DNA from: Candidatus Gottesmanbacteria bacterium RIFCSPHIGHO2_02_FULL_40_13
GTDB taxonomy: Bacteria; Patescibacteriota; Microgenomatia; 2-02-FULL-39-11
Assembly (NCBI GenBank): GCA_001779235.1
Contig: MFJN01000034.1
Location: 11,202-55,530 of the forward strand
DNA: 44,329 bases
Direction: 5' to 3'
Shown here: piece by piece, positions 171-29,856 of the stretch
Numbering within the stretch: position 1 is the first letter of the stretch
How the letters are laid out: each line of letters begins with the position of its first letter
Notes under the pieces: generated by a model
The model's input: the letters and a program-made list of their open reading frames with translations, nothing else
Told to the model about the DNA's origin: nothing
Database searches by the model: none
Made by a program: the position numbers and the translations under genes

Positions 171-3100
171 ATGCCTATAGAAACTGATGCAAGTTTTGGG
201 TTAAAGTCACTGGAAAACCGTGAGCGGAGATCTGAATTGGCAGATGCTATTTTAGCTGAGAAAGACCGCCTTTTAAAAATAGCAGGGCTAAATCAAAATT
301 ATCTGAATGAAGTTCAAAATATCGGGGAACAATACTCATTTTCAGACCCTCAAAAAATTTTAAACGCTGCAAATGAATTAGTTTCTGCTGTTAAAGCCTA
401 TGCGACGATTCACAATCCGAATAATTCCGAAAAGTATTTAGTCGGATTAAATGCAGCAGTTGTTGCCCTGGCTGAGATTCGGATCCTGGGTCCTGAAACC
501 CTATACAAATCTCAGCGGCAACAGCAAGCAGGAGAAGTTAGAAGGGTAGGAATCCAGAAAGAACAGGTGGAAGCCGCATTGGCAATCGAATCCATGGACT
601 CAGCGAAAGTACCAAGTTCGCAGGGTAAAAGCAATACCGCTATACCCATTGCCTCCGTCGTGCGGGCATTATTTACAGGAGAACAGGTTCATATCATGGT
701 GCGGGATCCTCAAGCAAAAAAAAGAGATTCGCAAAATATGAAGCTTCTGACAGAATCTTTAGGTATGAATTTGGGTGTCATAGAGCGGGGTGGAAATCAG
801 GACGAAAAATTATTAAAAAAACAAATTTCTGACCTGATTTTCATCCGGGATATTATCGATTATGCTTCCGGCATATCAGATCATCGAAAAAAGAAATTTA
901 AGGAATTTATCGCAGGACAAATTGACGACTCCGTAAAAAAGTTACATTTTCCCATGATTATTGAGGACGATAAATCACCGGTTGAGAAGGCAGATTCATC
1001 AAAACCGGCAGATATTATTATCGGTGATGACAAAGATTTTGTATTTTCATCAATGACAAGAGATAAAAGATTTATCCGGGAGAAAAGTAATGCAAGTATT
1101 ATTTGTGATGAAGGTGACCTTCCCTGGACTAAAGGCAGCCCCTATGAACTGGAAAATAGAGGCCTGTCTACACTTTCATCATATCTTCCGGAGTGGATTA
1201 CAAACAGCGTTGTTGACGAGGTCTGCCGGGAAATGCAGGATCAGGGGCAAATAATATTAAATAATCACAACGAGTTGGAGTTTGTAGACAGCCGGGGAGA
1301 GGAAACCCATGACATTTACGAGAGACGGTTAAGAAAAAGGCTTGGAGAGGTGACTAAATATGGAAATTTATCCCCGTCCAGCTTAAATGCACTAATAAGC
1401 AGTATAACAACAGAGTACTCCCGTATCATACAAAAGTTAGACGGTATCCCCTTTCCAAATGAGTTCAGGCTAAAGCCCGATAACCTTTTTAAGGATTCTG
1501 CGATGCGAAAACTGGTCAGAAATTTTGCGTATCAGGATGTATCAGCACCTTCAGCCATGCCTGAAGACACTAGTCTGGAGTCTCAAGACCCAATTGCTTT
1601 TTATGATTATGCGTGGTTCACCGCACAGAAGCTTACGCCCGGTATAAACTATTCCCGGTCTGATCAGGAAGTAGTCCTTATCGATCCGGAGACGGGACAT
1701 CCATTGCCCACCCATCAGTATTCCGGTTTGGTCGATATGGCGGTAGATGTGAAGGAAGGCGTATGCAGTTTTAGAGCCAGAAGCGACGAAGTTCTTGATA
1801 GAACAGATTTTCAGATGTTCCTTCAAACCAATTACGGTAAAGGGCACATATCCCTTGTTTCAGCAACACTCGACCATATAAGAGGTGAAGTAGAGGAATT
1901 TACAGGCGGAAAAGTGGCGGAAATCGGTTATTGGATTGGCCGGGAAATGCCGGTTTCTCAAATTGAAATTTCCGGGGATTTTGAAAAAGCTAAAAATAGA
2001 CTTCTCGTATTAGTTCAGGAAGCATCAACATCAGGCAGGCCTGTGGAAATTGTCTGTGACGATGATGAGGAGCTGGGAATTTTAAAACAAATTTTTGATG
2101 AATGGCTTAAAGATAATCCCGAATACCAAGTAAATATGGTTACTTCCAAAAGCAGTTTGGAGTCTGAAGATGAAATATTCGCTCACGCAGGACAATTAAA
2201 CACGATCACTCTTACCAATCCCAGAGGTGGAAGAATGGTGGATATCAAAACATCCCGAGAAACTAACGACGCAGGCGGATTACTGCTGGTTGTCTGGGGA
2301 GCCCTGAAAAATAAGGCGGTTTTACAGCAGGTATTAGCCAGGACAGCCCGAACCGGATCTCCGGGAGAAACACGCTGGATGGTTTATAAACATGGTGGAA
2401 AAGCTGCTCTGGAAAATAATCCCATCGTGAAAAGATATAGGAAACATTTAGATGCATTACAAACACTGCAGGATGGTCAGATGCTTGATTATGATTACAG
2501 CCTGCTGGAGAGTGTTCATGAGCGGAACAATCAGGACGACCGGTCCTTGAGGCTTTTAACCTATGCTTATGACGAAATGAGACAAGCTTTGTATACTGAT
2601 GCCCGTAAAAGCCTGAGGCAGGATATCGGAAGACTTGTGACCCAGGGATATATTGAGGAGTATATTCAGATGAGATGGCACGAGGTAATTGATTTTATAG
2701 CAGACTATTATATCTCACAAGTATCACGGTACAGGATGGATACTCTCGGAGATCTATCTGTAGCCAGAGGAACGGTATTAAGTGATACATATTTCAGAAA
2801 AATGCTGGATAAATATGCCAATACCTTATTAGTTGATTCACATAATTATTATATAAGAGATCCTAAAAGCGGTAAATTACGACCGGGATTTTTAAAACAT
2901 AAAATGCGTCTGGCTCCGGATATAGATACTTATTTACAATTTAAAGAAGAAGAAGAATATAGAAGTATGCTGCAAACGCACCATTTGGGCTTTTTGCCTC
3001 CTGTAAATCTTTTGGAACCCTTACGGGCCGGTTTATATTTCCCCCAAAGTCCGAATAAACTATATATCCTGACAAGATCAATAAATCTTTCTGTTGGCAG

Positions 3101-3305
3101 TCGGGCTAAAACAAGTCCTCACACCAGATACAGTCTGAGAGTTATGTCTTTTGATGACGAAGACCGGTTTGACGGAGACAAGGTGATCACTGTTGCGGAG
3201 AAAGACATCGAAGAATTGTTAAGTCAGGTTTTTTATACACAAAACATAATAAAACAAAAAGCCCTATTTCATGAACTTAGGGAGGCTCACCTGCTGCCTG
3301 CTTGA
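171..3305 (+). CDS. Highly divergent SecA-family (preprotein translocase motor-like) protein, 1044 aa
   Basis: ATG at 171, with TATAAT at 152-157. Collinear matches to SecA motifs as I recall them from E. coli. SSQGKSNTAIPIASVVRALFTGEQVHIMVRDPQAKKRD...LGMNLGVI matches [36 protein letters not shown]...LGLTVGI. KLHFPMIIEDD matches KLHYALVDEVD. DQEVVLIDPETGHPLPTHQYSGLVDMAVDVKEGV matches [34 protein letters not shown] (PPXD). TLTNPRGGRMVDI matches IATNMAGRGTDI. GGLLLVV...LARTARTGSPGETRWMV matches GGLHIIGTERH...LRGRSGRQGDAGSSRFYL. Confidence 0.65.
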   Translation: MPIETDASFGLKSLENRERRSELADAILAEKDRLLKIAGLNQNYLNEVQNIGEQYSFSDPQKILNAANELVSAVKAYATIHNPNNSEKYLVGLNAAVVALAEIRILGPETLYKSQRQQQAGEVRRVGIQKEQVEAALAIESMDSAKVPSSQGKSNTAIPIASVVRALFTGEQVHIMVRDPQAKKRDSQNMKLLTESLGMNLGVIERGGNQDEKLLKKQISDLIFIRDIIDYASGISDHRKKKFKEFIAGQIDDSVKKLHFPMIIEDDKSPVEKADSSKPADIIIGDDKDFVFSSMTRDKRFIREKSNASIICDEGDLPWTKGSPYELENRGLSTLSSYLPEWITNSVVDEVCREMQDQGQIILNNHNELEFVDSRGEETHDIYERRLRKRLGEVTKYGNLSPSSLNALISSITTEYSRIIQKLDGIPFPNEFRLKPDNLFKDSAMRKLVRNFAYQDVSAPSAMPEDTSLESQDPIAFYDYAWFTAQKLTPGINYSRSDQEVVLIDPETGHPLPTHQYSGLVDMAVDVKEGVCSFRARSDEVLDRTDFQMFLQTNYGKGHISLVSATLDHIRGEVEEFTGGKVAEIGYWIGREMPVSQIEISGDFEKAKNRLLVLVQEASTSGRPVEIVCDDDEELGILKQIFDEWLKDNPEYQVNMVTSKSSLESEDEIFAHAGQLNTITLTNPRGGRMVDIKTSRETNDAGGLLLVVWGALKNKAVLQQVLARTARTGSPGETRWMVYKHGGKAALENNPIVKRYRKHLDALQTLQDGQMLDYDYSLLESVHERNNQDDRSLRLLTYAYDEMRQALYTDARKSLRQDIGRLVTQGYIEEYIQMRWHEVIDFIADYYISQVSRYRMDTLGDLSVARGTVLSDTYFRKMLDKYANTLLVDSHNYYIRDPKSGKLRPGFLKHKMRLAPDIDTYLQFKEEEEYRSMLQTHHLGFLPPVNLLEPLRAGLYFPQSPNKLYILTRSINLSVGSRAKTSPHTRYSLRVMSFDDEDRFDGDKVITVAEKDIEELLSQVFYTQNIIKQKALFHELREAHLLPA

Positions 3306-3557
3306 ACTTACGGAAAAGGGGACGGTTCTCTTTTTATACGAGGTGCAACCTCGTTAAAAACCTCGTTTAAAAAAGCCAGAGAGCTAAAGGAAGCGATTGA
3401 GATGTTGATAAAACCTTACCGGTCTTGACAAAACTATAGGCGATGTTACGACATTAAAATGATGTCAAATCTATCAAGGGTAAACCCTAAAAGCGGATGT
3501 TTCTATATTGCAATAATAGGAAGTTATCATTTTGCACTAACAGGGGAAGACTCAGTC

Positions 3558-3586
3558 TTTACGTAAGACCTATAGCATGATATAAT
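3558..3586 (+). promoter_or_regulatory. Sigma70-like promoter directly abutting the ORF start (leaderless-type)
   Basis: -35 TTTACG (3558-3563), 17-nt spacer containing TG at 3578-3579, -10 TATAAT (3581-3586), then 6 nt (aaatca) and ATG at 3593. No Shine-Dalgarno. A near-palindrome gtctt-tacgt-aagac (3555-3569) overlaps the -35. Confidence 0.5.
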
Positions 3587-3592
3587 AAATCA

Positions 3593-6187
3593 ATGGTAGC
3601 AATTAATGCTATTGAAAACGGTACTACTGCACCAGGGTCTATAATAACAGATATTGCACGTAGTCCTATTGTTGGTTTGGAGGCCTCACATTCTGCTCCA
3701 AATCTAGTAGTTAATTCACACGCATACAATAGAGGAGACGGGTTAAATTCTCCTTTAAACCCCCAGGGAATTGTATTTGAAGGCTTTCAAACCCCGTATC
3801 AAGAAATGAGAAATGCCGCATCCGAAGTCTTACGGGATATGGGTATCAAACATAAAATAGAAAGAGAAGAAATGCTTCGAAGTTTTGATAGATTGCGCGA
3901 GGGAGACGAGAAAGCTGTTGAGGATTTTCAGGCAACGCTTAGCGATTTTCAGGACGGGGTTGTGGATCCGATACTAAAGGGATTGCACGAGGCCGTCAAA
4001 TTTGTAGATGAACAGGCTTTAAATATATTGACTGGGACAGAAATAGGTATAGGAGCGGCAATGGCTGGTTATTTAGCGGTAGATTATCTAAGACGAAGAC
4101 ATGATTTTTCTAGAGTTAAACGTGTGCTAAAACATGATGGGAGTAGAACTGGTTCTTTTCTAAAAGCTTTAGGTATATTAGCAGGATTTAGTGGAATTTT
4201 AGCAGGGTGTACGGGTTTGGTATGGGCTACAACAACTCTAACAGCAGAAGCTCCTCCGACTGCCTCATCTACTCTTCCACCTCCGCAGATAAAAGTAACA
4301 CATAATGCGCCACCTTCCGCCCCGCCTTCGGAGACCCCTTCACCCGTCCCTCCGGAAGATACGCCAATGCCTGAGACAGTAAACGAAGCATCGTATAACG
4401 CTCATGCTCTTTTGGATACCATCCCTGAAGAAAATCATATAGGAAACATTATTTCTAAAGAAAGTATGTCTAGACTTGCAGATGGAAGGGATACACTTAC
4501 CGGCTGGTCTCAAGATGCAGCAAAAGCAAAACTGGCAGAAATGCAGAGTGTTTTAGATAATTTAAATCCAGAATTGGTAAAAGATGAAGCAATTTTTGCA
4601 AAAACTGTATATCTAGTATTGTCAAAAGATGGTAAATATAATTTTATAATTCTGGTAAACGATACAGTTCCAGAGGGAACTATTGCGGGAGATACGTTGT
4701 GGCATTCAGCAACCATGGATGATACTGGTAAAGTAATATTTAGTTTCCAACCAAATGCCAACATGGGTCTTGGTGTTAATAGATTTGGTAATTGGGTTGG
4801 GCCCGGGGGGATAGATGGTAAGGAAACATTTCTTAAGGCAGTTGATCTGACTCCTGTGGGAGGCATCCAAGGACTGCTTGATGGCCGCGGAAGGATTGTT
4901 TTCGATGGTAACGGAATCGCCTATATTGTGGCGCTAAATAAAGATGGACAGGTAACGCAGGTATTTGATGCAGCATCAGGCAGCTGGCTGCCGTCAGAGA
5001 TAGTATTTGTCCCTGAGCCGGTGGCAACTCTCACCAATGAGCAGATTGTTTCCATGGATGATGGGCAAATATTACAGCAAGCGCCACAATTAAATTCAAC
5101 GGAATATCAATTTGATACAGAATTTCCTCTGGTTGCGGATGAGGTGATAAGAGGCGGTGAAGGGGCAAATTACGTGGTTTATAAAGATGAAACAGGCAAT
5201 TACCACCTGGTCTGGAATATAGAGACAGGTGAGGTAAATCACGCGATTTATGCCCCAGCCTATGAAGGTGAAATTGGAGGGGAAGTCCATAAGGGAATAC
5301 CGCTTCTGGTGCTTACAGACAATTCAGTTCTTAAGCCGGAAAACGGCGGGGGCTGGTTTGGTTTAAATCCCGATTACACAGACGCGCAAGCCCGCATAGC
5401 CGAAGCATTTCAGATAGCCTTGGGCATGAGGTATTGGGATTCTAAAATAAAACCGGCCGATAATTTCCCATTTAGCCACGGATTACCGGATTTCAAAGAC
5501 GTCCCCGGTTATGAGACTTTAAAGCAGGAATTAGAGAGATATTTTTCTCCTCCAAATCATGCACCTATACCGCATGAAACTCCAAAATATTTGAGAGTCA
5601 AAATTGCAAATTATTTGAGAGATAAATTTTTGCTGGATTTAAAAACAGCCAAAGAAGAAGGTATGCCTTTTCTAGTCCGCATGAAGGATAAGGGCAGAAC
5701 ATACGCGGATCTGGCAGGTATAAATACCTTTATCATTGATTTTACCGACAGCGGGAAGATGACCTTTCTAGGCGATAACCAGAGAAGGTCTGAAAGTTTG
5801 CTTGCTTATAACAAAATAAGCTACTATTTTATTAGTGCACTAACAGCACCTGGCAGTTTCAGATTAACAGTTGATAATTGGAAATATGACTATAATACCA
5901 ACAGATGGTTTGGCGGTGAGTTTTTAGCTTTACTCAGGTATGCTTTCGCAGGTCAGTATTATGCTGCAGGTGGATATGAACTCGGTCGAAAGTGGGTTCA
6001 AGAATCAAGCAGTGATTTTACACATCAAATCGCAGCCGAAATGCTCTCGGATAAGGTCGTTGCAGATAATCCTGAATTAGCGGAAATATTAGATGATTAT
6101 GCCTTAAGTTACCCGTTTTTATGGTGGGTAGGATACCCGCCTGACTGGTTTACCAACAGCTCGGCAGTACAATTTGTGAAGCCGTAA
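3593..6187 (+). CDS. Large membrane-anchored protein of unknown family (864 aa): about 190-aa N-terminal cytoplasmic part, TM, Pro-rich stalk, about 600-aa ectodomain
   Basis: Long ORF. Strongly hydrophobic segment FLKALGILAGFSGILAGCTGLVWATTTL, followed by APPTASSTLPPPQIKVTHNAPPSAPPSETPSPVPPEDTPMPE. I recognise no catalytic motif. Confidence 0.8.
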   Translation: MVAINAIENGTTAPGSIITDIARSPIVGLEASHSAPNLVVNSHAYNRGDGLNSPLNPQGIVFEGFQTPYQEMRNAASEVLRDMGIKHKIEREEMLRSFDRLREGDEKAVEDFQATLSDFQDGVVDPILKGLHEAVKFVDEQALNILTGTEIGIGAAMAGYLAVDYLRRRHDFSRVKRVLKHDGSRTGSFLKALGILAGFSGILAGCTGLVWATTTLTAEAPPTASSTLPPPQIKVTHNAPPSAPPSETPSPVPPEDTPMPETVNEASYNAHALLDTIPEENHIGNIISKESMSRLADGRDTLTGWSQDAAKAKLAEMQSVLDNLNPELVKDEAIFAKTVYLVLSKDGKYNFIILVNDTVPEGTIAGDTLWHSATMDDTGKVIFSFQPNANMGLGVNRFGNWVGPGGIDGKETFLKAVDLTPVGGIQGLLDGRGRIVFDGNGIAYIVALNKDGQVTQVFDAASGSWLPSEIVFVPEPVATLTNEQIVSMDDGQILQQAPQLNSTEYQFDTEFPLVADEVIRGGEGANYVVYKDETGNYHLVWNIETGEVNHAIYAPAYEGEIGGEVHKGIPLLVLTDNSVLKPENGGGWFGLNPDYTDAQARIAEAFQIALGMRYWDSKIKPADNFPFSHGLPDFKDVPGYETLKQELERYFSPPNHAPIPHETPKYLRVKIANYLRDKFLLDLKTAKEEGMPFLVRMKDKGRTYADLAGINTFIIDFTDSGKMTFLGDNQRRSESLLAYNKISYYFISALTAPGSFRLTVDNWKYDYNTNRWFGGEFLALLRYAFAGQYYAAGGYELGRKWVQESSSDFTHQIAAEMLSDKVVADNPELAEILDDYALSYPFLWWVGYPPDWFTNSSAVQFVKP

Positions 6188-6394: not shown

Positions 6395-6922
6395 ATGAGA
6401 CGAAAATCGGCAATAATCTTTGCCTTCATGCTTCTGGTCACCTCAATACTTGCGTATTTTTATTTTAGGGGAACCTGGTCGAACTGTACTATATCAGTGA
6501 AGTCGGATAAAAATGCACCATATGTAAAGATTGCAGACCGGGATAAATGGCTGGATTTTATAGGCAAATTGGCAGAGTGCCAGGACGGATTTTATCAGGC
6601 ATACAGTGAAAAAGAGCACCTGTTTATTCCGGTCAGGCGTGTAGAGTTTGCGATAGTAAAAGATAGCCAGACAGTGACTTTGAAAGATGCTAGCGGAGCG
6701 CTGTACAGCCGGACTATCGCCATCGACAGGGCGAAAAAACAGGCTGTGGTTTACATCAATATACCTGCGTCTGACCTGGAAAAGTTTAAAAAATATCTGC
6801 ATACAGCCGTATTTCTGAATGCTTACCTGTTATTTCGGGGAAATCCCTATAATACCTACGAGCCTGCGTTAGCGCCATATAAGGATCTGGATGCGCTCGG
6901 CATCTCATATGAAAAGCCGTAA
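6395..6922 (+). CDS. Small N-terminally membrane-anchored/secreted protein, unknown family (175 aa)
   Basis: ATG start. N-terminal MRRKSAIIFAFMLLVTSILAYFYF hydrophobic segment. Its stop (6920-6922) overlaps the next gene's ATG (6909) by 14 nt, suggesting an operon. Confidence 0.7.
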   Translation: MRRKSAIIFAFMLLVTSILAYFYFRGTWSNCTISVKSDKNAPYVKIADRDKWLDFIGKLAECQDGFYQAYSEKEHLFIPVRRVEFAIVKDSQTVTLKDASGALYSRTIAIDRAKKQAVVYINIPASDLEKFKKYLHTAVFLNAYLLFRGNPYNTYEPALAPYKDLDALGISYEKP

Positions 6923-9900
6923 ACCGATACAGGTTTTATTGTTAATTTCAATTTTTATCAGTCTGGGTTTGATTTTTTTGCTAAATCCGCCAAAAACTTC
7001 TGCTCAATCCTGCGGAGGGTATTGGAACTGCTGTATTGGGGGGCTTTGCTGCGATCCGCCTCAATGTACAAGTTATACATGCCATAGTGATTTTCAAGAC
7101 TCCTGTTCAGGAACCACTCAATCCGCATGCGAAGATACCGGTAGCAACAGCTACCCTGACTGTTCTGAGAACGGATACAGTCGATGCGATAATGACCCTA
7201 GCTACGAGCCTGGCGGAGGGCCTGGGTGTACGTGGGATCCTGGTGGGGGTGGTGGCGCTACGAATACTCCAGCAGGCGCCTGGTGTACCGGCGGACATGA
7301 AGATTGTGTTGGCGGAGATCCTGGTGATTCTTGCGGGAACGGCGGCACCTGTCAGGACAATAACAGCGATCACAATTGCGGTTGTGCCGGTGAAACCGTC
7401 CCTACTGATACTCCCACCCCAACACCTACACCTATCTGCCCCTCTATTGGTTCTGTCTCTCCTTCTTCTATTACCAGTGGTACCACTGTTGATATTGCAG
7501 TTACTTACACCGATTTATCAGGCGGGTCAAATATAGATCGGGGTTACCTTGGTTTTAACGGCTGTACCCTGGACCCGGGGGAAGCCTACAACAGCAATTT
7601 TGAGCGGGAACTTGCTAATTATATGGGTATGTTCTATGCTGCCTCAGCAAACTGGGGTGGGGTGGGAACCAATGGAACTGGAGGAGCCTGTTCGCTAGGC
7701 AGCTATGGTGATGACCCCTGGGGATATTTCGGCGGAACAACTATTGGATTTGATAACGCAAATAGCAATTTAACTGTCAATACTGTTTCTACATCAGTTT
7801 CCGGTAATAATCGCACATTCACCTGGAATGTAACTTTGCAAAATAATTTTCCCGCAGGTTCTTATAGTTATTATGGTATGGTTCGGGATGCAGATAATAA
7901 CTACCAAGGTTGCGGTGGAGCCAGATGGACGAAACTTAACTCTCTTCAGGTTATTACTCCCACTCCTACCATTACCCCCACTCGTACACCTACCCCCACC
8001 CGTACCCCTACTCCAACCATTACTCTCACCCCTACTCCAACCATTACTCTCACCCCCACCCGTACGCCTACTCCTTATGTGAATGCTTACTTCAGAAATT
8101 CTGCGGGTTTAACTGTCACTGCCAATGCAGGAGCATATTTCTGGAATGGGGGAAATCGTGTAGATCCCCAATTTAACATATCCGAATATCTTCATCACGC
8201 GAACTATTCTTGGCATACAGAAAAAGGTGTTGGTGTGGATCCGGCAGGAAGTGATATAGTAATTGGTATTACTCCGTCACCTTTAACAGGTACATTGTCC
8301 AATTATACTAATGGAAGTGAATATTGGTGGAGATATCTGTGGCCGTCCTGGAATACCGCAGAACATTCTATTACCTTTATCATTGCATCCCCAACTCCTA
8401 CTCCTACCCCCACCCGTACCCCTACTCCAACCATTACTCCCACCCCTACTCCAACCATTACTCTAACCCCTACAGTTACTCCAACCGTTACTCCCACTCC
8501 CACCCTGACCCCGACCCCGACTTTTTATAATCTTTACGGCTGGATTTATACGGAAACAAACAACGCGGTCGTCAGAAGTGAGGAAGCTTCGGAAGGATTG
8601 CTTCCCGGTTATACCGTGGATCTGACAGGCGACGAAGAGCGTACAACTATCTCACAAGGCTCACCGATTGCCGGATTTCTGGCTAATTACATCTTTACTC
8701 CTCTTTATAATGGTACTTATGAGGTTCAGATGCCTATAACTCCAACCGATTCAGTGCTTTTCCCGAGATATACAAATCCTAAAATAGCGATTATAGCCGG
8801 TGGAGATGTTATTGCTGACTTTCCTTTTATCACGATTACGCCATACCTGAGTCCTACCTCCACGCCTACCGCCACGCCTACTTCTACTCCGCCTCCAATC
8901 ACCCCTACTCCTACTTCTTTATGGTCACCGACCCCGACTGTCGGGTCCGGAACCCCTACTCCTACTTCATATCCATGCCAGACACTGCCTACACCTATTC
9001 TGAACGCACCTTCGCATCTTTTATGTACCAATATCAAACCGGCTTTTTCAGCCTATGTATCAAATCCCAATAACGATAATGTCTGGGCACATTTCTACAG
9101 CAATTATTATGAAACATTCAGCAGAACAGGATCGGTAGTAAGCCCCTCCGGAGGAAATAGTATCTGGACGCCGGACGGATCTGTGCTGAACACTACCGGA
9201 GGCTACTGGTGGACGGCTTATACGGAAAGTTCTTCCTGTCCGCGCTCATTTGATGCCCCCGCCAACCTGCTGAATATGGATTATACTCCTCCGCCCAAGC
9301 CCCAGGCTCCCGTCTGTACTATTACTGACCCGAATTTATATTCCGGCCTATGCGCATTGCATTGTGAATGGGAGGCTGATCCGGAGCCGGTTCCTCCTAC
9401 ACCGACTCCTCCTTCCTGCAGTGATACCGGTGATTATCACCCTATTTTCAGATCTTACGGAGGTCCGGGAGTTGTAGATCCTCCAGGCTGGATCGGAAAT
9501 GTATTATTTGTGGATGTTGAGGCTGAGGCTGGGCAGGAATTGTATGCGAGTGTGGAGGCCAGGGACGGCCTTGGCAACACATCATTGCCTTCAGATGAGG
9601 CCGGCCCGTATACGTGTGAGGAAATCATCTTTCCCGTATCTCCTACTCCCGGCGGACCGACCCTGACCCCCACCGGTAGCCCTCCGCCGACAGCTACTCT
9701 CACACCGTCAATCACGCCTGTCCCGTCTCCGGAAATCTGGTCGCAGGTTTTCGGCGGAGACGTCTATGAACCATCACTTCTGCAAAGTAATCTTCCCTCA
9801 GGAAAATATTATTTAGATGACATATCACTTTTATTCCCTAATAGCGCCGGAGTGCTGTGGTCGGGTTCCGGCGCAGGTGATTTCGGATACGGTACCTCTT

Positions 9901-10454
9901 CGCCGACGAATTGGCAGGTAGCGTCCACTCTTTCCAACGCTTTCAACTTTTCCTATTACTGGGAATCTTTGAAAAACAATCCTGATGTTGTTACTGTACC
10001 AAATACAACCACTATTCCTTCTTCTGATATAGTCGCAGACAAATCTATATATTATTATAATCAGGCGTTGATATCTTTGAATTCAAATCTTACTTTAATG
10101 CCGTCGGGTAATGTGGCAATATTCTTAATCTCAGGTTCACTGAATATTAAAAATAATTTTACAGTTACCCCGGACGAGTCAGTAGTGTTTGTGGTGAACG
10201 GTAATATTGAGGTGGACAGCAATGTGACCCGTGTCGACGGACTTTTTATCGACAGCGGAACATTTTCAGTTGCAACCGGCCCGGATCCGCTTGTCATCAA
10301 CGGAATGGTTTATACCGGGGAGATGAGTTTAAACAGGACTTACAAAAGTTTTTCCGCACCAACCTATAAATTTATCTACCAGCCGAAATACGTGATAGCA
10401 TTATTGCCGTATCTTGGCAGGCCGCAGATTAATTGGCAGGAGGGAGGACCATGA
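6909..10454 (+). CDS. Giant secreted surface protein: signal peptide, 18-Cys N-terminal module, several domains separated by (T/P)n linkers, C-terminal about 330-aa domain
   Basis: MKSRKPIQVLLLISIFISLGLIFLLNPPKTSAQ looks like a signal peptide. An alternative ATG lies at 6891. There are 18 Cys within about 130 aa (SCGGYWNCCIGGLCCDPPQC...NCGCAGE). TPTPT-type linkers are encoded at about 7950-8080, 8390-8520, 8860-8960 and 9640-9730. The stop TGA (10452-10454) overlaps the ATG of the PilX-like gene (ATGA). Confidence 0.85.
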   Translation: MKSRKPIQVLLLISIFISLGLIFLLNPPKTSAQSCGGYWNCCIGGLCCDPPQCTSYTCHSDFQDSCSGTTQSACEDTGSNSYPDCSENGYSRCDNDPSYEPGGGPGCTWDPGGGGGATNTPAGAWCTGGHEDCVGGDPGDSCGNGGTCQDNNSDHNCGCAGETVPTDTPTPTPTPICPSIGSVSPSSITSGTTVDIAVTYTDLSGGSNIDRGYLGFNGCTLDPGEAYNSNFERELANYMGMFYAASANWGGVGTNGTGGACSLGSYGDDPWGYFGGTTIGFDNANSNLTVNTVSTSVSGNNRTFTWNVTLQNNFPAGSYSYYGMVRDADNNYQGCGGARWTKLNSLQVITPTPTITPTRTPTPTRTPTPTITLTPTPTITLTPTRTPTPYVNAYFRNSAGLTVTANAGAYFWNGGNRVDPQFNISEYLHHANYSWHTEKGVGVDPAGSDIVIGITPSPLTGTLSNYTNGSEYWWRYLWPSWNTAEHSITFIIASPTPTPTPTRTPTPTITPTPTPTITLTPTVTPTVTPTPTLTPTPTFYNLYGWIYTETNNAVVRSEEASEGLLPGYTVDLTGDEERTTISQGSPIAGFLANYIFTPLYNGTYEVQMPITPTDSVLFPRYTNPKIAIIAGGDVIADFPFITITPYLSPTSTPTATPTSTPPPITPTPTSLWSPTPTVGSGTPTPTSYPCQTLPTPILNAPSHLLCTNIKPAFSAYVSNPNNDNVWAHFYSNYYETFSRTGSVVSPSGGNSIWTPDGSVLNTTGGYWWTAYTESSSCPRSFDAPANLLNMDYTPPPKPQAPVCTITDPNLYSGLCALHCEWEADPEPVPPTPTPPSCSDTGDYHPIFRSYGGPGVVDPPGWIGNVLFVDVEAEAGQELYASVEARDGLGNTSLPSDEAGPYTCEEIIFPVSPTPGGPTLTPTGSPPPTATLTPSITPVPSPEIWSQVFGGDVYEPSLLQSNLPSGKYYLDDISLLFPNSAGVLWSGSGAGDFGYGTSSPTNWQVASTLSNAFNFSYYWESLKNNPDVVTVPNTTTIPSSDIVADKSIYYYNQALISLNSNLTLMPSGNVAIFLISGSLNIKNNFTVTPDESVVFVVNGNIEVDSNVTRVDGLFIDSGTFSVATGPDPLVINGMVYTGEMSLNRTYKSFSAPTYKFIYQPKYVIALLPYLGRPQINWQEGGP
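7993..8056 (+). repeat. 64-bp direct repeat, copy A (linker-coding), 62/64 identical to copy B
   Basis: cccccacccgtacccctactccaaccattactctcacccctactccaaccattactctcacccc. It contains an internal tandem of acccctactccaaccattactct. Confidence 0.9.
8407..8470 (+). repeat. 64-bp direct repeat, copy B
   Basis: Differs from copy A at two positions only. The offset of 414 bp (138 codons) keeps it in frame. Confidence 0.9.
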
Positions 10455-11365
10455 TTATGAAAATCCAAATTACTCCGCCAAAGGCGGATCAGCCTCTGGC
10501 TGAAAATTTCAAATTCCAAATAAACAGGAAGAATTATATAACCCGCGATAAATCAGCAGGTCAAATAGTATTGATACTGGTTCTAATTACCGTAGTTGGT
10601 TTGACTATCGGATTATCCCTGATTTCCAGGTCGGTGACCGACGTCAGAATATCATCGCAGATTGAAGAATCAAGCAGGGCCTTTTCAGCGGCAGAGGCAG
10701 GTGTGGAAAATGCCTTAAAGATCATTAATGTATTCCCGACTGACACGCCTCAATCCATCACCCTGGATAATGCTTCAGCAGAATACACAGTTTCCGATAT
10801 AGGAGGCAGCAACAGTCTTTACTCCTTCCCTGCGACCGAAGCCAATTCATCACAGATCCTCTGGCTGGTGAATCATGATTCTGACGGAGGCTTGGGTATA
10901 GCCTATTATTCTAAAACAGATTCACTGGATATTTGCTGGGGTATAGCCGGAAATAATGCAGCTATTGAGTTTAGCCTTTATTATAAAACCGGCTCAACAT
11001 ATAAAATCGCCAAGTCTGCTTATGATCCGGATATTTCCCGCGCCGGCAATAATAAATTTAACCCGGCTGATACAGATGGTAGTTACTGCGAAAGTATTTA
11101 TCCGTATAAACATACGATCAACTTTATTACTGATTTTGGAGTTTCGGAGGCTGATAATTTATTGGCTCTGCGAATGACACCGGTTTATGAGAATACTGCA
11201 ATAGGCGTCAAACCCACTGAGAATTTGCCCGTCCAGGGAAATCAAATAAATTCCGTGGGTAAAACCACTACGGGGGTAGTACGAAAAATTCAGGTGAACA
11301 AGACTTACAGTATCTTGCCGGGGTTATTGGACTTCGCTTTGTATTGCGAATCCAACTGCCAGTAA
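10451..11365 (+). CDS. PilX-like type IV pilus-associated protein (PilX_N-type N-terminus)
   Basis: GGAGG at 10444-10448. ATG at 10451 (ATGA overlap with the upstream stop) or at 10457; the ORF-track start 10433 is TTG. The TM helix GQIVLILVLITVVGLTIGLSLI followed by SRAFSAAEAGVENAL is typical of the PilX N-terminal domain. There is no G/FTLxE prepilin cleavage motif. Confidence 0.6.
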   Translation: MIMKIQITPPKADQPLAENFKFQINRKNYITRDKSAGQIVLILVLITVVGLTIGLSLISRSVTDVRISSQIEESSRAFSAAEAGVENALKIINVFPTDTPQSITLDNASAEYTVSDIGGSNSLYSFPATEANSSQILWLVNHDSDGGLGIAYYSKTDSLDICWGIAGNNAAIEFSLYYKTGSTYKIAKSAYDPDISRAGNNKFNPADTDGSYCESIYPYKHTINFITDFGVSEADNLLALRMTPVYENTAIGVKPTENLPVQGNQINSVGKTTTGVVRKIQVNKTYSILPGLLDFALYCESNCQ

Positions 11366-11512: not shown

Positions 11513-12541
11513 ATGAGTAATATTTTAATTGGACTGGATATAGGGTCCAGTTCGATCAAAGCTGCCCAAATATCCAAAGACAAGGCCATTTCCACCCTGC
11601 TGGCGGCAGGTTATATTGCCACTCCGGTTAGGGACGTGACCAGTATGAATGAGCATGATGAGCAGGAACTGGCAAACAGCATCAACCATCTGGTTCATGA
11701 TATGAAAGTTTCCAACATTAATGTGTCTGCGTCGCTCCCCTCTTCCAAAGTTATCACCCGGATAGTGGAGATGCCCCTAATGGATGATAAGGAGCTTGCC
11801 TCAAGCATACAATGGGAAGCAGAGCAGTATATACCTTTTCCTTTAACCAAGGTGAAACTGGATTATGCCGTGGTAAGTGCTAATATTCAGACGAAAAAGA
11901 TGAATGTTCTGCTGGTTGCAGCTCAGATAAGCCTGATTGAGTCTTATATGCGTATTATTACGCTGGCAGGTCTAAATCCTATCGCGCTGGAAACTGAAAT
12001 CATGGCCATTGGCAGAAGCGTTGGTTTCAGTCTGCCTACCGTGTCTGATGTTTTGATTGTCTCTATAGGTGCAAATGCCACCGATATTGCTCTAATGCAT
12101 GACATGGTCTTAAGTTTTACAAAATCGTACCCGATTGGCGGAAATAATATGTCCCAGGCGATAGCTGAAGAGTTGGGGTTTGAGATTGCCCAGGCAGAAG
12201 AATATAAAAAAACTTACGGATTGGAGGAACATAAGCTTGAAGGAAAAATTGCCAAAATTATCTCGCCTTACATCAATAATCTTATTGAGGAGATGGAGAA
12301 AATAGTTGCCTTTTACAAAAAAACATTTGCGAGTTCGGAAATTTCGACGGTAGTCATCTCAGGAGCGGCCTCAAAACTGCCGGGATTGGTTCTGACAATC
12401 ACCAAAAATTTAGGCCTTGATTCCCAGTTGAGCAATCCTTTCATCAATTTAAGCGTTGATCCAAAAATTCTGCCTAAATTGACGGAAGAAGCGCCGTTAT
12501 ATACGACTTCCATCGGCCTTGCTTTAAAGGAAACAGATTAA
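11513..12541 (+). CDS. pilM: Type IV pilus assembly protein PilM (actin-like ATPase fold)
   Basis: GLDIGSSSIKAAQI N-terminus, SIGANATDIAL, ISGAASKLPGL. Size about 340 aa. Followed by PilN- and PilO-like genes. Confidence 0.9.
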   Translation: MSNILIGLDIGSSSIKAAQISKDKAISTLLAAGYIATPVRDVTSMNEHDEQELANSINHLVHDMKVSNINVSASLPSSKVITRIVEMPLMDDKELASSIQWEAEQYIPFPLTKVKLDYAVVSANIQTKKMNVLLVAAQISLIESYMRIITLAGLNPIALETEIMAIGRSVGFSLPTVSDVLIVSIGANATDIALMHDMVLSFTKSYPIGGNNMSQAIAEELGFEIAQAEEYKKTYGLEEHKLEGKIAKIISPYINNLIEEMEKIVAFYKKTFASSEISTVVISGAASKLPGLVLTITKNLGLDSQLSNPFINLSVDPKILPKLTEEAPLYTTSIGLALKETD

Positions 12542-12545: not shown

Positions 12546-13118
12546 ATGGTCAAAAAAAGTATCAATTTACTGATCGAGAAAGAATTGGATTCACTGCTGG
12601 TTGCCAAATTAAAACACTACCTGCCTGTTGCCGCAGCTGTCTGTTTTATACTTTTTATCATCCTTTTTATAGTATCGATCACCATTACGAAGAAAAATCT
12701 GGCCCAATATAATACTCTTAAAGAAGAGGTAAACAAAATCGAAAATAAAATAGATGAAAAGCAAAATCTTGAGGGAGTTTATACTCTCAGCTACAGCATT
12801 TTAAAAATCATAAATGAGATTACCGGTAATAAAGTAAATTTTACCCCGCTGCTCGCTTCGGTTATAAAAATAAACTCAGATGACCTGTCATTAACCAAGG
12901 CTATGTCTGATGACAAAGGCCTGGTAAATTTCAGCATCAGCGCTTCGTCATCGGCAGCCCTCAATAATTTGGTTTCTTTTCTTCATGAAAGGGAAGATAA
13001 GGATAAAATATTTTCCGCCATTTATGCCCACCGTGCCACCAGAAATACAGACGGAGGATATCAGATATCTGTTTCTTTCAAAGCAGACGAGTCGCTTTAT
13101 CATGAAAAAACCAATTAA
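12546..13118 (+). CDS. pilN: PilN-like pilus assembly protein
   Basis: N-terminal SINLL motif (the PilM-binding INLLP-like motif), a single TM, a coiled-coil region, and its position after pilM. Confidence 0.7.
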   Translation: MVKKSINLLIEKELDSLLVAKLKHYLPVAAAVCFILFIILFIVSITITKKNLAQYNTLKEEVNKIENKIDEKQNLEGVYTLSYSILKIINEITGNKVNFTPLLASVIKINSDDLSLTKAMSDDKGLVNFSISASSSAALNNLVSFLHEREDKDKIFSAIYAHRATRNTDGGYQISVSFKADESLYHEKTN

Positions 13119-13830
13119 TTATTATCTTTATAAGTTAAAAAAATATGAAATTATCGGAGTTTCATCTTTGGTTATTTTATCAGTTCTGGCTTTATCATAT
13201 TATTTTCTCCTGCCGAATCTCCGTAAAGCGCAGGAAATATTTTCCCAGCAAAAACAGTTGAGGGCGCGTTTGACCATTCTGCGGAAAAAAGATGAACTGC
13301 TGTCCACGATCGACAGTAAAGTTTATCAGGAAAATATCAATAAACTGACCGGTATTTTACCCGGATCGAAAGATTATGTTTCTTTATTTAATACATTTGA
13401 CAACCTGCAGATTGAGAGCGGTGTGACCATTCTGAAAACTGATCTTCAGCTGGGAAGCATATCCACGCAGTCTGGCAAGTTGAAGAAAGATACTCTATCA
13501 TCAGCCTTCATCATACCTGTAAAAATTGATATTATCGGAAATATTGACCAGATAAATAACTTTATCAATTCTCTGGCTGATTTAACAAACCGGATTATCA
13601 CCGTGAATAACATTTCCTGGGGCAGCAGTGCAGACGGCTTATATAAGGTATCACTTGACGGCAACAGTTATTTCTATCCCCTGCCGTCAAAAATCGGCGG
13701 TATCGATTCACCACTCGTGGAAATCAATGAAAAACAGCAAAAAATTCTGGATACAATCGCCGCAATACCGGCCCAAAGAGTTGATGAGAGTGAGTTTGTC
13801 CCGCTCGGCAAGCCAAATTTATTTAACTAA
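13102..13830 (+). CDS. pilO: PilO-like pilus assembly protein
   Basis: ATG at 13102 (MKKPINYY...). TM IIGVSSLVILSVLALSYYFLL plus a coiled coil. The ORF-track 5' extension to 12985 overlaps pilN and is unlikely. Overlaps the pilN stop by 17 nt. Confidence 0.6.
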   Translation: MKKPINYYLYKLKKYEIIGVSSLVILSVLALSYYFLLPNLRKAQEIFSQQKQLRARLTILRKKDELLSTIDSKVYQENINKLTGILPGSKDYVSLFNTFDNLQIESGVTILKTDLQLGSISTQSGKLKKDTLSSAFIIPVKIDIIGNIDQINNFINSLADLTNRIITVNNISWGSSADGLYKVSLDGNSYFYPLPSKIGGIDSPLVEINEKQQKILDTIAAIPAQRVDESEFVPLGKPNLFN

Positions 13831-26022: not shown

Positions 26023-27264
26023 TTAAAAGCTTCGCTTTTTTACGTTCCACCATAACTCTATTCTATCAAAAGATTTATTAATTGCATCTTCCGGCGATCC
26101 GAAGGAAAGTCTCAGGTGGTACTCTCCTTCAGGCCCGAAACCGATACCCGGAACGGTGACGACAGCAGCTTCATAGAGTAATTTTTTAGCGAATTCAATA
26201 CTGCTTATCGGCAGGTTGTAGCGTGGAAAAACATAATAGGTACCACAGGGCTTTACATAAGAAAAAAGATCAGGCAGGTTGTCCAGTCGTTTACAGATAA
26301 TATCGCGGTTGCGTTTTAGCCATTTTCTATGATTATTAACTACTCCCTGCGGACCGGTCAACGCGGCGATCGCTGCCTCCTGGGATATATGCGGTGCGCA
26401 AACGATGTTGGCGTCATGAATTTTTAAGATATGCATCAGCAATTTTTTATTAGTATGAAGGAATCCTATTCGCCATCCCATCATACCGTATTTTTTTGAC
26501 AGGGAACAGCATCTGATGACCCTGGGCCAGAGTTTTTTTATCGAAGCAATATTAAAATATGAAGTATCATCATAAATGAGAAAATCATAGACTTCATCGG
26601 TAATGACATATATTTTAGTCTCGTATAAGATCTCTGCGAGACTTCTAAGGTCTTCTTCCAAAAAAACGGCGCCTGTCGGATTCTGGGGATTATTTATCAC
26701 GACTGCTTTAGTTTTTTTAGTGATGGCCTTTTTAATATTGACAACATCTAAACGGTAACCTGTTTTTTTATCTTCAATCATGGGAACAGGAACCGCGATA
26801 CCTCCGGCGATTGATACCTGCTCGCCGTAGGATGAAAAATAAGGAGAGGGTAAAATAACCTCATCACCGGGATTAACCAAAGTCAGCATTGAATAGAGTA
26901 GTCCTGCCATACTGCCGGGAGTTATCAGAATGTCATCGGAGGAGGTTTCAATTCCCAGTAATTTTTGTGAAAGCGCAGCAGTTATGGTGCGAAGTTCAGG
27001 CAATCCTGTCAGAAGTGTGTATTTATCAATATCTTTTTTATTTTTTATTGCCTTGATAGCATGCTGGTGAATAAAGTCTGGTGCGGGATAAAAAGGAAGT
27101 CCTACCCCGAGCGATACTATGTCTTTACCTTTATTCTGTTCCAGTGCGCCAAGATATGTCATTTCCTTAATGACGGAAACACTGGTATTTTTAAGCCTTA
27201 CTGCGAGCTCCGGCAAATCGACGGTGTCGCCTGTTGAAGTTAGAACCGATCTGTTGTTGTTCAT
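26023..27264 (-). CDS. Class I/II PLP-dependent aminotransferase (likely the aromatic/phenylpyruvate aminotransferase of the operon)
   Basis: NPQNPTG, SLSKKYGMMGWRIGF (PLP lysine). 4-nt overlap with the aroC stop. The substrate assignment comes from context only. Confidence 0.8.
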   Translation of the reverse strand: MNNNRSVLTSTGDTVDLPELAVRLKNTSVSVIKEMTYLGALEQNKGKDIVSLGVGLPFYPAPDFIHQHAIKAIKNKKDIDKYTLLTGLPELRTITAALSQKLLGIETSSDDILITPGSMAGLLYSMLTLVNPGDEVILPSPYFSSYGEQVSIAGGIAVPVPMIEDKKTGYRLDVVNIKKAITKKTKAVVINNPQNPTGAVFLEEDLRSLAEILYETKIYVITDEVYDFLIYDDTSYFNIASIKKLWPRVIRCCSLSKKYGMMGWRIGFLHTNKKLLMHILKIHDANIVCAPHISQEAAIAALTGPQGVVNNHRKWLKRNRDIICKRLDNLPDLFSYVKPCGTYYVFPRYNLPISSIEFAKKLLYEAAVVTVPGIGFGPEGEYHLRLSFGSPEDAINKSFDRIELWWNVKKRSF

Positions 27265-28427: not shown

Positions 28428-28442
28428 ATGATTATTAGAAGT

Positions 28443-29273
28443 TTAAGGAATTGATTCATTAATGTTTTTTAAAGCTTGTTCCATTATTCTAACCGGAGGG
28501 TCGATTCCGGTGAACATTTTAAATTTTAACACAGCCTGCCAAAAAAGCATTCTTTCTCCATATACTAATTTACTTTGCATTTCTTTAGCGTTTACTAATA
28601 ATTTAGTTTCTTTAGGATTAGTAACAAGATCCATGACAGTTAAGTCTGAGCGCAATAAACCTTTTGGAACAAGTGATTGATTTTCATTCGGCTTCATTCC
28701 GACTGATGTAGCATTGATTAAAATTTCTGCTTGTTCAATTTCTTGAGCAAGAGATTGTATAGAATTACTTCTGGCATTTATTTTTCTGGTAATTTGTTTG
28801 GCGAGGTCTGCATTTCTATTTAGAATAATTAAATTTCCGCCTTCATCCGTCACCGCAATGGCGATTGCCCGGGCTGCCCCGCCGGCACCCAGTAATAATA
28901 CATTTTTATTTTTTATAACGGTTACTTCGTTTAACGCTTTGACACAACCTAATCCGTCGGTATTGCCACCGCTTAATTTACCGTTGTCATTAACTATGAC
29001 GTTTACCGCACCAATTATTTGAGCATTTTCGTCAAGTTCATCAAGATATTTTATTGCCTCGATTTTATACGGAATAGTGACACCCACCCCTTTTATTCCC
29101 AGTTGGCGAATTCCCTCAATTGCCTTTTTCAGATCTTTTACCGCAAAAGGAACATAGACATAATTGAGTTGTAAAGCTTTAAAAGCAGCATTGTATAAAG
29201 TAAACATTTTGCTTGTTTTGTATGTTGAACCGAAAAACCCGATTATTTTTGTTTCTCCGTTTATTTTCATCAT
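28443..29273 (-). CDS. aroE: Shikimate dehydrogenase
   Basis: GVTIPYK, NTDGLG, LLGAGGAARAIA (NADP Rossmann). Confidence 0.92.
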   Translation of the reverse strand: MMKINGETKIIGFFGSTYKTSKMFTLYNAAFKALQLNYVYVPFAVKDLKKAIEGIRQLGIKGVGVTIPYKIEAIKYLDELDENAQIIGAVNVIVNDNGKLSGGNTDGLGCVKALNEVTVIKNKNVLLLGAGGAARAIAIAVTDEGGNLIILNRNADLAKQITRKINARSNSIQSLAQEIEQAEILINATSVGMKPNENQSLVPKGLLRSDLTVMDLVTNPKETKLLVNAKEMQSKLVYGERMLFWQAVLKFKMFTGIDPPVRIMEQALKNINESIP

Positions 29274-29311
29274 TATAATTTTACTTCATTACTATATATT
29301 AATGTAGTAAA

Positions 29312-29848: not shown

Positions 29849-29856
29849 ATTTCTAA

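Follow-up and report, generated by a model that had tools for sequence, protein, structure and literature searches.

We analysed a 44,329-nucleotide stretch of contig MFJN01000034.1 from Candidatus Gottesmanbacteria bacterium RIFCSPHIGHO2_02_FULL_40_13, the whole of which is referred to as the window. Close to its left end lies a gene for a 1044-residue SecA-like protein, followed on the same strand by a gene for an 864-residue protein, its partner, and by genes of a type IV pilus operon (Table 1). A first-pass annotation had described the SecA-like product as extremely divergent, with substituted ATPase motifs, and as either a specialised SecA2-like motor or a pseudo-ATPase. We find that it is a SecA homologue of a separate and rare family, constantly paired with a partner that in most cases carries a lipoprotein-type signal displaced from its N-terminus.

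Table 1. Coordinates of the SecA-like gene, its domains and motifs, its partner and neighbouring genes (positions in the window, unless another locus, L, is named; nt, nucleotides; aa, amino acid residues; NBD, nucleotide-binding domain; HSD, helical scaffold domain)
Feature	Position (nt)	Strand	Residues (aa)	Remarks
SecA-like ATPase gene, ATG to stop	171..3305	+	1044 aa	open reading frame (ORF) call, SecA homology
NBD1		+	3-334	holds insertion at ~205-280
Helical NBD1 insertion, poorly conserved	783..1010	+	~205-280	between motifs Ia and Ib
Cross-linking-domain position	1173..1748	+	335-526	192 aa, versus 108 in canonical SecA
Rest of NBD1		+	527-575	mapping to canonical SecA
NBD2	1938..2468	+	590-766	phmmer and alignments
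Long helical-scaffold helix	2502..2627	+	778-819	aligned to SecA HSD helix
C-terminal alpha/beta domain	2898..3302	+	910-1044	no SecA counterpart by sequence
Walker A / motif I, SSQGKS	615..632	+	149-154	family SGQGKS, SecA TGEGKT; G152 and K153 invariant
Motif Ia				family VRDPQAKxRD, SecA VNDYLAKRD
Motif Ib				family IGDDKDFVF, SecA YGTNNEFAFDY
True Walker B / motif II, CDEGD	1104..1118	+	312-316	D313 and E314 invariant, aligned with SecA DEVD; family DEGD (DEVD in P0012)
Motif III, LVSATL	1854..1871	+	562-567	T566 invariant in 56/56 aligned sequences; family S[AG]T, SecA [ST]GT
Motif V, GGRMVDI	2226-2246	+	686-692	family GRMxDI, SecA GRGTDI
Motif VI, QVLARTARTGSPG	2328-2366	+	720-732	alignment; family QVLARTxRxGxPG, SecA QLRGRSGRQGDPG
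Spacer between SecA-like gene and partner, 288 bp	3306..3592	+		82-95 bp in relatives
Promoter-like site TTTACG-17-TATAAT with upstream TG	3558-3586	+		best promoter-scan match; ends 6 nt before partner ATG
Partner gene	3593..6187	+	864 aa	conserved neighbour of SecA-like gene; N-terminal extension aa 1-185, then signal, tether aa 207-~265, ~600-aa extracellular domain of no known family
Partner genes in relatives	L008 13217-15514; L019 13308-15623; L011 6309-8387(-); L016 44-2017(-); L017 354-2318(-)			
Prepilin peptidase PilD (A24) and seven prepilin-like genes	L001 5670-9953			upstream of window start; GFTL(L/V/M/I)E-type N-termini
Small protein with one N-terminal transmembrane (TM) segment	6395..6922	+	175 aa (164 aa in another call)	
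Secreted protein, Cys-rich then P/T-rich	6891..10454	+	1187 aa	
PilX_N-like	10433-11365	+	310 aa	Pfam
PilM	11513-12541	+		
PilN-like	12546-13118	+	190 aa	
PilO	12985-13830	+		
Bac_transf	L011 11957-12559(-); L014 3-539(-); L017 5715-6137(-)			
Wzm/Wzt-type ABC exporter	L011 13573-15083; L016 5566-6333			

SecA homology and the family of the 1044-residue protein

The 1044-residue protein has database twins (NCBI OGG20808.1, UniProt A0A1F6A7T3) from a Candidatus Gottesmanbacteria metagenome bin, within the Microgenomates of the Candidate Phyla Radiation (CPR). At NCBI it is labelled hypothetical, and the automatic UniProt label reads 'SecA family profile domain-containing protein'. No membrane segment was predicted in it. 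Sequence models of known families recognise it poorly: in Pfam searches SecA_DEAD (PF07517) reached 22.8 bits against a cut-off of 24.6 and P-loop_SecA 18.2 bits against 27, with no match to PF01043 or PF07516. The NCBIfam SecA and SecA2 models scored 33-58 bits against cut-offs of 725-1493 and favoured neither SecA (TIGR00963, 38.6 versus 800 bits; PRK09200, 58.3 versus 862) nor SecA2 (TIGR03714, 53.5 versus 930; NF012136, 41.9 versus 1100; TIGR04397, 42.0 versus 1085; TIGR04221, 36.8 versus 725).

Comparison with proteins of known structure leads to SecA. Against the PDB sequences, phmmer found Clostridioides difficile SecA2 (6t4h, E=1.4e-12) in two collinear stretches, aa 124-220 and 489-833, and a profile of 13 family members had Thermotoga maritima SecA as its best match (E=1e-24). 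An AlphaFold2 model built from a 56-sequence alignment (15 family and 41 SecA-type proteins) reached a mean confidence (pLDDT) of 87.8 and a predicted TM-score (pTM) of 0.87. When it was compared with the PDB using Foldseek, the best 36 matches were all SecA or SecA2 (E 2e-22 to 4e-8, 900-1000 aligned columns), followed by DinG, XPD and UvrB at E of 1e-6 or worse. Foldseek and the collinear alignments agree on the SecA architecture, that is, NBD1 with an inserted cross-linking domain, NBD2 and a long scaffold helix; identity to housekeeping SecA structures is 13-17%. The protein is therefore a SecA homologue with a weak sequence signal and a strong fold signal. The first-pass annotation had already called it collinear with SecA, and this view holds: the scaffold-helix peptide that it quoted (LLESVHERNN...QALY, aa 778-808) aligns as claimed, and its other peptides are all present in the protein (SSQGKS at 149-154, IEDD at 264-267, LVSATL at 562-567, GGRMVDI at 686-692 and ARTARTGSP at 723-731).

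A search of 1.84 billion representative sequences with the family profile retrieved 11 proteins at 222-2158 bits (925-1126 aa, each a cluster at 50% identity) and a few fragments, below which the scores fall to ~87 bits, where ordinary SecA and other superfamily 2 (SF2) proteins start. Another protein search with the profile returned close relatives only, and the two named members of the family are both Gottesmanbacteria. Pattern-based scans, which miss distant members and whose locus counts are lower bounds, yielded a single locus from 185,579 species genomes and another from the JGI metagenomes (5-sequence alignment). In a neighbour-joining tree of 701 shared columns the 13 family members were monophyletic in 100/100 bootstrap replicates, with mean p-distances of 0.68 (family members), 0.69 (the 41 SecA-type sequences used for comparison) and 0.83 (one group against the other). 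As judged from these distances, the family is a separate lineage, old or fast-evolving, and no recent oddity. Our literature searches found no prior description of it, and the UniProt label is its sole annotation, in agreement with the earlier remark that no described family has this motif set. As a separate observation, weaker matches to the family profile (P0022, P0025, P0055, P0126 and P0152) are proteins of 1472-4930 aa with a SecA-like motor far inside; they resemble the giant SecA-module proteins described elsewhere (bioRxiv 10.1101/2023.11.21.568195).

Domain architecture and catalytic motifs

The domain map was obtained by projection onto canonical SecA with its known Pfam boundaries (Table 1). 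An insertion is also found at the same NBD1 loop in T. maritima SecA, where it comprises 50 aa, and in SecA of Thermotogales and Aquificales (PMC7023208). At the position of the preprotein cross-linking domain (PPXD), the first part is new and mostly helical and only the last part is SecA-like by sequence; this includes ETGHPLPTHQYSGLVDMAVDVKEGVC (aa 507-532), the best-conserved SecA-like, non-motor segment of the family. In the model, three helices (aa 825-890) follow the scaffold helix in the position of the helical wing domain, and a comparable three-helix wing domain is present in C. difficile SecA2 (PMC7503281). The helical C-terminal region has about half the length seen in housekeeping SecA. 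From the order of secondary-structure elements alone, the two-helix finger would either be missing or be split by a beta-structured stretch of ~80 residues. The C-terminal domain is modelled as a helix (910-930), a beta-sheet (938-1009) and two helices (1010-1038); it differs between family clades and stands in place of the SecA tail and zinc finger.

These changes are common to the family. Among the 13 members, SecA_DEAD was matched in 10 at E<=0.01 (best 1.3e-9) and P-loop_SecA in six, while PF01043 (cross-linking), PF07516 (wing/scaffold) and SEC-C were matched in none, versus E=5e-40 for PF01043 and E=1e-60 for PF07516 in a canonical SecA control. The lack of a C-terminal zinc finger, noted in the first pass for the one protein, is thus seen in all 13. 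A missing C-terminal tail is typical of SecA2, in which the wing domain is often shortened as well (PMC7503281).

To follow the catalytic motifs, the 13 family members (down to 24% identity) were aligned and 41 SecA-type sequences were then added, giving 56 in all. Invariant in the 13 members are Q132, G152-K153, Q172, H174, R185-D186, G285, D313-E314, T566, N683, R688 and R724, and S154 is nearly so. Residues conserved at >=90% in the 56 family and SecA sequences include Q132, G152, K153, R185, D186, D313, E314, D316 and T566, as well as R688, D691, Q720, R724, R727 and G729, the last six aligning with SecA in NBD2. The SF2/SecA motifs Q, I (GK[ST]), Ia (RD), II (DExD), III ([ST][AG]T), V (GR..D) and VI (Q..R..R.G) are all found, with the family matching the 41 SecA-type sequences and T. 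maritima SecA one-to-one.

This alignment changes the reading of the motifs. The first-pass annotation held that nearly every catalytic motif was altered, that DEVD had become IEDD and that an insertion follows Walker B. IEDD (aa 264-267, nt 960-971) falls in an unconserved block of the NBD1 insertion, and it is D313-E314 of CDEGD that align with SecA DExD; the apparent loss of Walker B was due to mis-alignment. Independent support for CDEGD is provided by the profile-to-PDB alignment, which pairs the family's 'iiDEgdlpw..ekgSpyii' with 'IVDEADSVLIDEARTPLII' of T. maritima SecA. Because CDEGD is the true Walker B, the insertion precedes it. The substitutions lie at non-catalytic positions, leaving GK[ST], DExD, the motif III threonine, GR..D of motif V and Q..R..R.G of motif VI in place, so that the described extent of alteration was overstated. 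Judged by alignment, the core catalytic residues are all kept once Walker B is correctly placed, and since the residues for ATP binding and hydrolysis are conserved, the proposal of a pseudo-ATPase loses its support.

The partner gene and its surroundings

At all loci with enough flanking sequence, an ORF of 600-860 aa without Pfam matches lies directly downstream or divergently upstream of the SecA-like gene, with SecA-like identities of 24-100% across the paired loci. The partners comprise 864 (window), 765 (L008), 771 (L019), 692 (L011), 657 (L016), 654 (L017) and 607 aa (L014), and partial copies are found at L006, L007, L012, L013 and L018. Searches of Pfam and the PDB with the window partner gave no match. 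By sequence the partners form two clades, with homology at E of 1e-8 to 1e-119 within each.

The architecture is common to both clades. The first ~50-60 residues are acidic, of low complexity and poor in K/R, and are followed by a helical part, in which the motif '..lG(I/V)-D...' recurs around residues 80-115, and then by a single hydrophobic segment at ~160-215, a P/T/S/A-rich linker and a large C-terminal domain. In the window partner the signal consists of a K/R n-region (...KHDGSRTGSFLK), an h-region (ALGILAGFSGILAG) and the lipobox LAG-C206 (nt 4199-4210); C206 is the sole Cys of the protein, and the tether behind it is P/T/S/A-rich. The hydrophobic segment has the same form in 7 of the 9 partners, with K/R residues, 12-15 hydrophobic residues and a lipobox (LAG-C in the window, and LAG-C, GLA-C, TTA-C, VAS-C, IAA-C and LAA-C), so that [LVI][ASTVI][GAS]C ends an h-region behind a positive n-region. 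The lipobox Cys is unique in four partners (657-864 aa, from two sequence-unrelated clades); that a lone Cys should occupy just this position has a chance of ~1e-3 per protein. A rule of the PROSITE PS51257 type expects this Cys within about the first 35 residues; here it lies at residues 173-217. The N-terminal extension is nevertheless part of the protein, because its amino-acid sequence is conserved (61% identity from the window to L007, and 26% over ~500 residues to L019), it runs on into the remainder of the ORF without a stop codon at every locus, and L019 has no in-frame ATG, GTG or TTG 12-50 codons upstream of the Cys. The partner thus looks like a lipoprotein precursor whose signal is placed ~160-200 residues into the chain, and its lipobox Cys may be lipidated and cleaved.

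A TATAAT box 6-13 nt before the partner ATG, with no Shine-Dalgarno sequence, occurs at four loci of both clades (window, L008, L019 and L011), which suggests a dedicated promoter giving a leaderless or near-leaderless partner mRNA. A small hairpin, ACGAGGT-GCA-ACCTCGT (~3339-3355), lies shortly after the SecA-like stop codon. The 288-bp spacer gave only sub-threshold Rfam matches (SAM_alpha, 19.9 versus 36 bits), which we treat as chance.

On longer contigs with an identical SecA-like gene, a single same-strand array runs in the order PilD, seven prepilins, SecA-like, 864-aa, 175-aa, 1187-aa, PilX_N-like, PilM, PilN-like and PilO. This is a type IV pilus cluster, with a prepilin peptidase, pilins with class III signals and PilM/N/O. 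PilB, PilC and PilT were not found among the genes of L001 or the window; PilB and PilC may be encoded elsewhere, by analogy with Saccharibacteria (TM7x), in which pilus genes are split over several loci (PMC12206443). In a closed Microgenomates genome the pilus locus includes PilB, PilC and PilT, and an ordinary secA/secYEG set is also present (PMC7143001).

The 1187-aa protein shares its C-terminal domain (aa 950-1187, nt 9738-10451) with a 575-aa DUF7305 protein (E=1e-14) that holds the same position at L011 and passes the Pfam cut-off. It also has several TPTPTP-type linkers, and its P/T-coding stretch accounts for a local rise in GC and a negative GC skew at 8001-10000. A PDB match to 8zvk (E=7e-10, aa 501-570) was judged to be a low-complexity match to a P/T linker and set aside. 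Proteins of the same size as the 175-aa protein, with an N-terminal TM segment, follow the partner at L011, L014 and L017; homology could be shown solely between L011 and L017, and the window protein has no detectable similarity to the ~200-aa proteins of L011 and L014.

Surroundings differ among the relatives. Pilins lie upstream of SecA-like genes with 60%, 39% and 32% identity (L006, L007, L008, L019 and L010), and at L008 and L019 the 175-aa, 1187-aa and PilMNO genes are absent behind the pair. The second clade of the family (25-29% identity; L011, L014, L016 and L017) has no pilin genes in the fetched flanks. Its neighbours are an initiating sugar transferase (Bac_transf), a Wzm/Wzt-type ABC exporter and teichoic-acid-type and nucleotide-sugar enzymes; the Bac_transf sugar-phosphate transferase adjoins the SecA-like gene and is 52-75% identical among three of these loci. 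Glycosyltransferases also occur at L008 and L019, and at L019 a Wzy_C/O-antigen-ligase-type protein comes after the pilins. From these genes, glycosylation may be suspected for the pilins or for the surface proteins rich in P/T. Genes resembling SecY or Asp were absent from the scanned ORFs of the window and from the Pfam-tagged genes of L001, L011, L014, L016 and L017, L008 and L019 having been covered as ORF lists with Pfam run on two L019 ORFs and one L008 ORF. A reading as a defence system was dropped, PADLOC giving no match for the motor and its three downstream neighbours. At L008 an AbiEii-type toxin gene (a nucleotidyltransferase of type IV toxin-antitoxin systems; 8914-9576, minus strand) lies between the last pilin and the SecA-like gene in opposite orientation; it is not found at this position in the window's contig.

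Three further observations concern other parts of the window. The minus strand at 26023-34763 carries, in a single array, what looks like a full shikimate-to-phenylalanine gene set, with DAHP synthase, dehydroquinate synthase, type II dehydroquinase, shikimate dehydrogenase, shikimate kinase, EPSP synthase, chorismate synthase, prephenate dehydratase and an aminotransferase. The set is remarkable, since a poor biosynthetic repertoire is usually ascribed to CPR genomes. A tRNA-Leu(TAG) at 41668-41750 (minus strand) was found by ARAGORN and was absent from the whole-window Rfam gathering scan; it scored 52 bits, above the cut-off, when a small region was scanned, so the miss was a filter effect. 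Finally, a 505-aa ORF without a Pfam match (38486-40003, plus strand) overlaps with its first codons a tRNA-Val (38421-38493, minus strand), so that its true start, if it is a gene, is probably further downstream.

Candidate roles and relation to known SecA systems

The best explanation for these findings, and one that we regard as a little better than an even bet, is that the gene encodes an active SecA-derived accessory export motor, distinct from the housekeeping SecA, that is dedicated to the neighbouring long-leader surface lipoprotein. As the long scaffold helix, the basal strands of the preprotein clamp and the catalytic residues are all kept, the protein would here be an intact two-lobed SecA motor. 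It would recognise the acidic, partly helical cytoplasmic extension of the partner (~160-200 residues), plausibly through its own clade-specific C-terminal domain, and drive the C-terminal part of ~450-650 residues across the membrane, presumably via SecYEG. The lipobox Cys would then be lipidated and cleaved, and the mature protein would be held at the surface by its P/T-rich tether, which may be glycosylated. A type IV pilus operon includes the pair in the window's clade.

Several points weigh against this explanation. The link between motor and client is drawn from gene adjacency, and the accessory status presupposes a canonical secA in the same genome, which we infer. Any similarity between the two partner clades lies below significance: BLAST and hmmsearch found nothing, and the one alignment, by hhalign, pairs corresponding N-terminal positions at E=1.3e-3 with a probability of 19%. 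The L014 partner (607 aa) has neither hydrophobic segment nor lipobox, and L018 has a weak lipobox motif. Moderate hydrophobicity persists behind the Cys in the window's clade (CTGLVWATTT), and the segment could be an ordinary uncleaved membrane anchor. With respect to the fold, the 56-sequence alignment held canonical SecAs, which may have biased the model towards SecA, and AlphaFold2 run on a family-only alignment (5 sequences) gave a poor model (mean pLDDT 53) that was unusable past NBD1. The phmmer and profile results stand apart from the model and are untouched by such a bias.

A role of the motor in the pilus itself, exporting or loading the 1187-aa DUF7305-type protein or minor pilins instead of the adjacent lipoprotein, is a much less likely explanation but deserves to be weighed first among the alternatives. 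It would account for the position of the gene in the window's clade, behind PilD and seven prepilins and ahead of PilX-like, PilM, PilN and PilO in an operon that has no PilB, PilC or PilT, for the pilins upstream at L006, L007, L008, L010 and L019, and for the recurrence of the DUF7305-type domain at L011. The clade-B loci (L011, L014, L016 and L017), with glycan-synthesis genes in place of pilins in the fetched flanks, do not fit it, and neither do L008 and L019, which lack the 175-aa, 1187-aa and PilMNO genes behind the pair; across the loci only the 600-860 aa neighbour is constant. Moreover, prepilins are small proteins, and they are handled by the general Sec/SRP (signal recognition particle) route.

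We think it improbable that a SecA-derived SF2 motor has been reused outside export, either in pilus-based DNA uptake, in the manner of ComFA, or as a signalling or scaffold component acting with the cytoplasmic domain of the partner. ComFA is DEAD-box-like and works with competence pseudopili. Uptake of DNA has been proposed for CPR type IV pili (PMC7143001), the two-helix finger may, from the order of secondary-structure elements, be interrupted by the ~80-residue beta domain, and the structural matches that come next after SecA are the DNA helicases DinG, XPD and UvrB. These helicase matches are, however, weaker than SecA by ~16 orders of magnitude, and among non-motor segments the strand pair specific to SecA at the preprotein clamp base is the most conserved; the scaffold helix has been retained as well, and the clade-B loci have no pilus genes in the fetched flanks.

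That the gene might be the sole, fast-evolving housekeeping SecA of the organism, an alternative named in the first-pass annotation, seems to us very improbable. No canonical secA is present in the 44-kb window or the fetched flanks, and CPR proteins are often very divergent, both of which would suit it. The counts of 11 clusters in 1.84 billion representatives and, in a scan of limited sensitivity, one locus in 185,579 species genomes are however far too low for the housekeeping gene of a widespread lineage, and the match between the p-distances within the family and among the comparison SecAs (0.68 and 0.69) marks an old separate lineage. The gene also sits in a surface-structure operon with a private partner, and a standard Sec set is encoded in the closed Microgenomates genome (PMC7143001). 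The first-pass opinion that this is no housekeeping SecA is borne out by the same rarity, monophyly and operon context, together with the sub-cut-off NCBIfam scores and the 0/13 matches to PPXD, wing and SEC-C. Least probable of all is a catalytically dead pseudo-ATPase, for which S150 in place of G in the window's clade, GRMVDI for GRGTDI, ARTARTG for GRSGRQG, and the DE-E and degraded motif VI of P0016 and P0017, the most divergent members, might be cited, but against which stand the conserved GK[ST] of Walker A, DE of Walker B, T of motif III, R and D of motif V and both arginines of motif VI. What probability these readings leave over belongs to something that we have not considered.

Taking the accessory export motor as the working explanation, the closest parallels lie among accessory SecA systems. 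Such systems, described in Gram-positive pathogens, carry particular adhesins and virulence factors out of the cell, and how they choose their clients is still debated. In the accessory Sec (aSec) system SecA2/SecY2 of streptococci, staphylococci and lactobacilli, serine-rich repeat (SRR) adhesins with a ~90-aa signal peptide and an AST targeting domain are encoded together with SecA2 and glycosyltransferases (PMC6973325). The window's locus is alike in having a SecA-type motor, which would be a second one, beside one dedicated large surface protein, a client with an abnormally long N-terminal targeting region, glycosyltransferases at the loci and a motor without a C-terminal tail (PMC7503281). 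It differs in that the SecA-like protein scores far under the cut-offs of the SecA2 models (53.5 versus 930 bits), forms its own clade, ends in a new domain and has neither a PPXD nor a wing/scaffold that Pfam can detect; SecY2 and Asp1-5 genes were absent from the fetched loci; and the partner is of lipobox type, versus LPXTG anchoring in aSec, with an extension about twice as long that lies ahead of the n-region. The linked surface-protein client with an extended N-terminal region is a functional analogy, with no evidence of common descent, and the resemblance to SecA2 appears to be functional and the origin independent. The first-pass term 'specialised SecA2-like motor' thus fits as a probable mode of working and not as membership of the known SecA2 families, whose score cut-offs the protein does not reach.

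SecA2-only systems are a second parallel. Their clients are mostly unlinked and have ordinary or absent signal peptides, unlike the fixed neighbour of the SecA-like gene, and SecA2 itself is readily matched by SecA Pfam and NCBIfam models, versus sub-threshold matches here. Two Mycobacterium smegmatis lipoproteins are SecA2-dependent. As in our family, the SecA2-only proteins of Mycobacterium, C. difficile and Listeria lack a C-terminal tail; they are accessory paralogs without a second SecY, and some have a reduced wing (PMC7503281). Further afield, divergent SecA_DEAD/PPXD modules are found in giant membrane-spanning proteins of Omnitrophota and Actinobacteria, where they coexist with normal SecA; these long-branch motors have no recognisable wing/scaffold and have type II secretion or type IV pilus-like genes in their vicinity, and export of the large surface protein to which they are attached has been proposed as their role (bioRxiv 10.1101/2023.11.21.568195). 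The motor is fused in cis there, whereas the SecA-like motor is free-standing (925-1126 aa), keeps the scaffold helix, lies beside its presumed client and comes from the CPR Microgenomates lineage. T. maritima SecA (PDB 3DIN, 3JUX and 4YS0) shares with it the domain order, the catalytic motifs and the insertion in the same NBD1 loop (PMC7023208), and compared with housekeeping SecA the window's SecA-like protein has no SEC-C, a remodelled PPXD region and an added C-terminal alpha/beta domain.

SecA homology, flagged automatically by UniProt, and the concept of accessory SecAs are already known. As far as our searches show, what is new is a distinct SecA-derived family, so far restricted to CPR Microgenomates, with an altered domain make-up, a fixed partner with a displaced lipoprotein-type signal and a setting in pilus or glycan islands. 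More tentatively, and with less confidence than we would give to an even chance, the motor may be a third, independently evolved kind of accessory SecA that recognises a ~200-residue cytoplasmic pro-region placed before a lipoprotein signal and exports a single tethered, pilus-linked and probably glycosylated surface protein as its client, with signal peptidase II releasing the pro-region inside the cell. If so, the motor would represent a new class within SecA and its client a new, giant-leader class of lipoprotein precursor.

Beyond homology, conservation and gene linkage, these claims are drawn from the sequences of uncultivated organisms and are to be read as conditional. The fixed one-to-one pairing of motor and client would offer a natural case for how accessory SecAs choose their clients: since the C-terminal domain of the motor and the extension of the client both vary between clades, a recognition code could be read by covariation. 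The client would also widen the range of lipoprotein signals, as standard predictors need a lipobox near the N-terminus and would miss such proteins. CPR surface appendages are thought to mediate attachment to hosts. Located in the pilus and surface-glycan islands of these ultra-small bacteria, the partner may matter for their host-attachment lifestyle.

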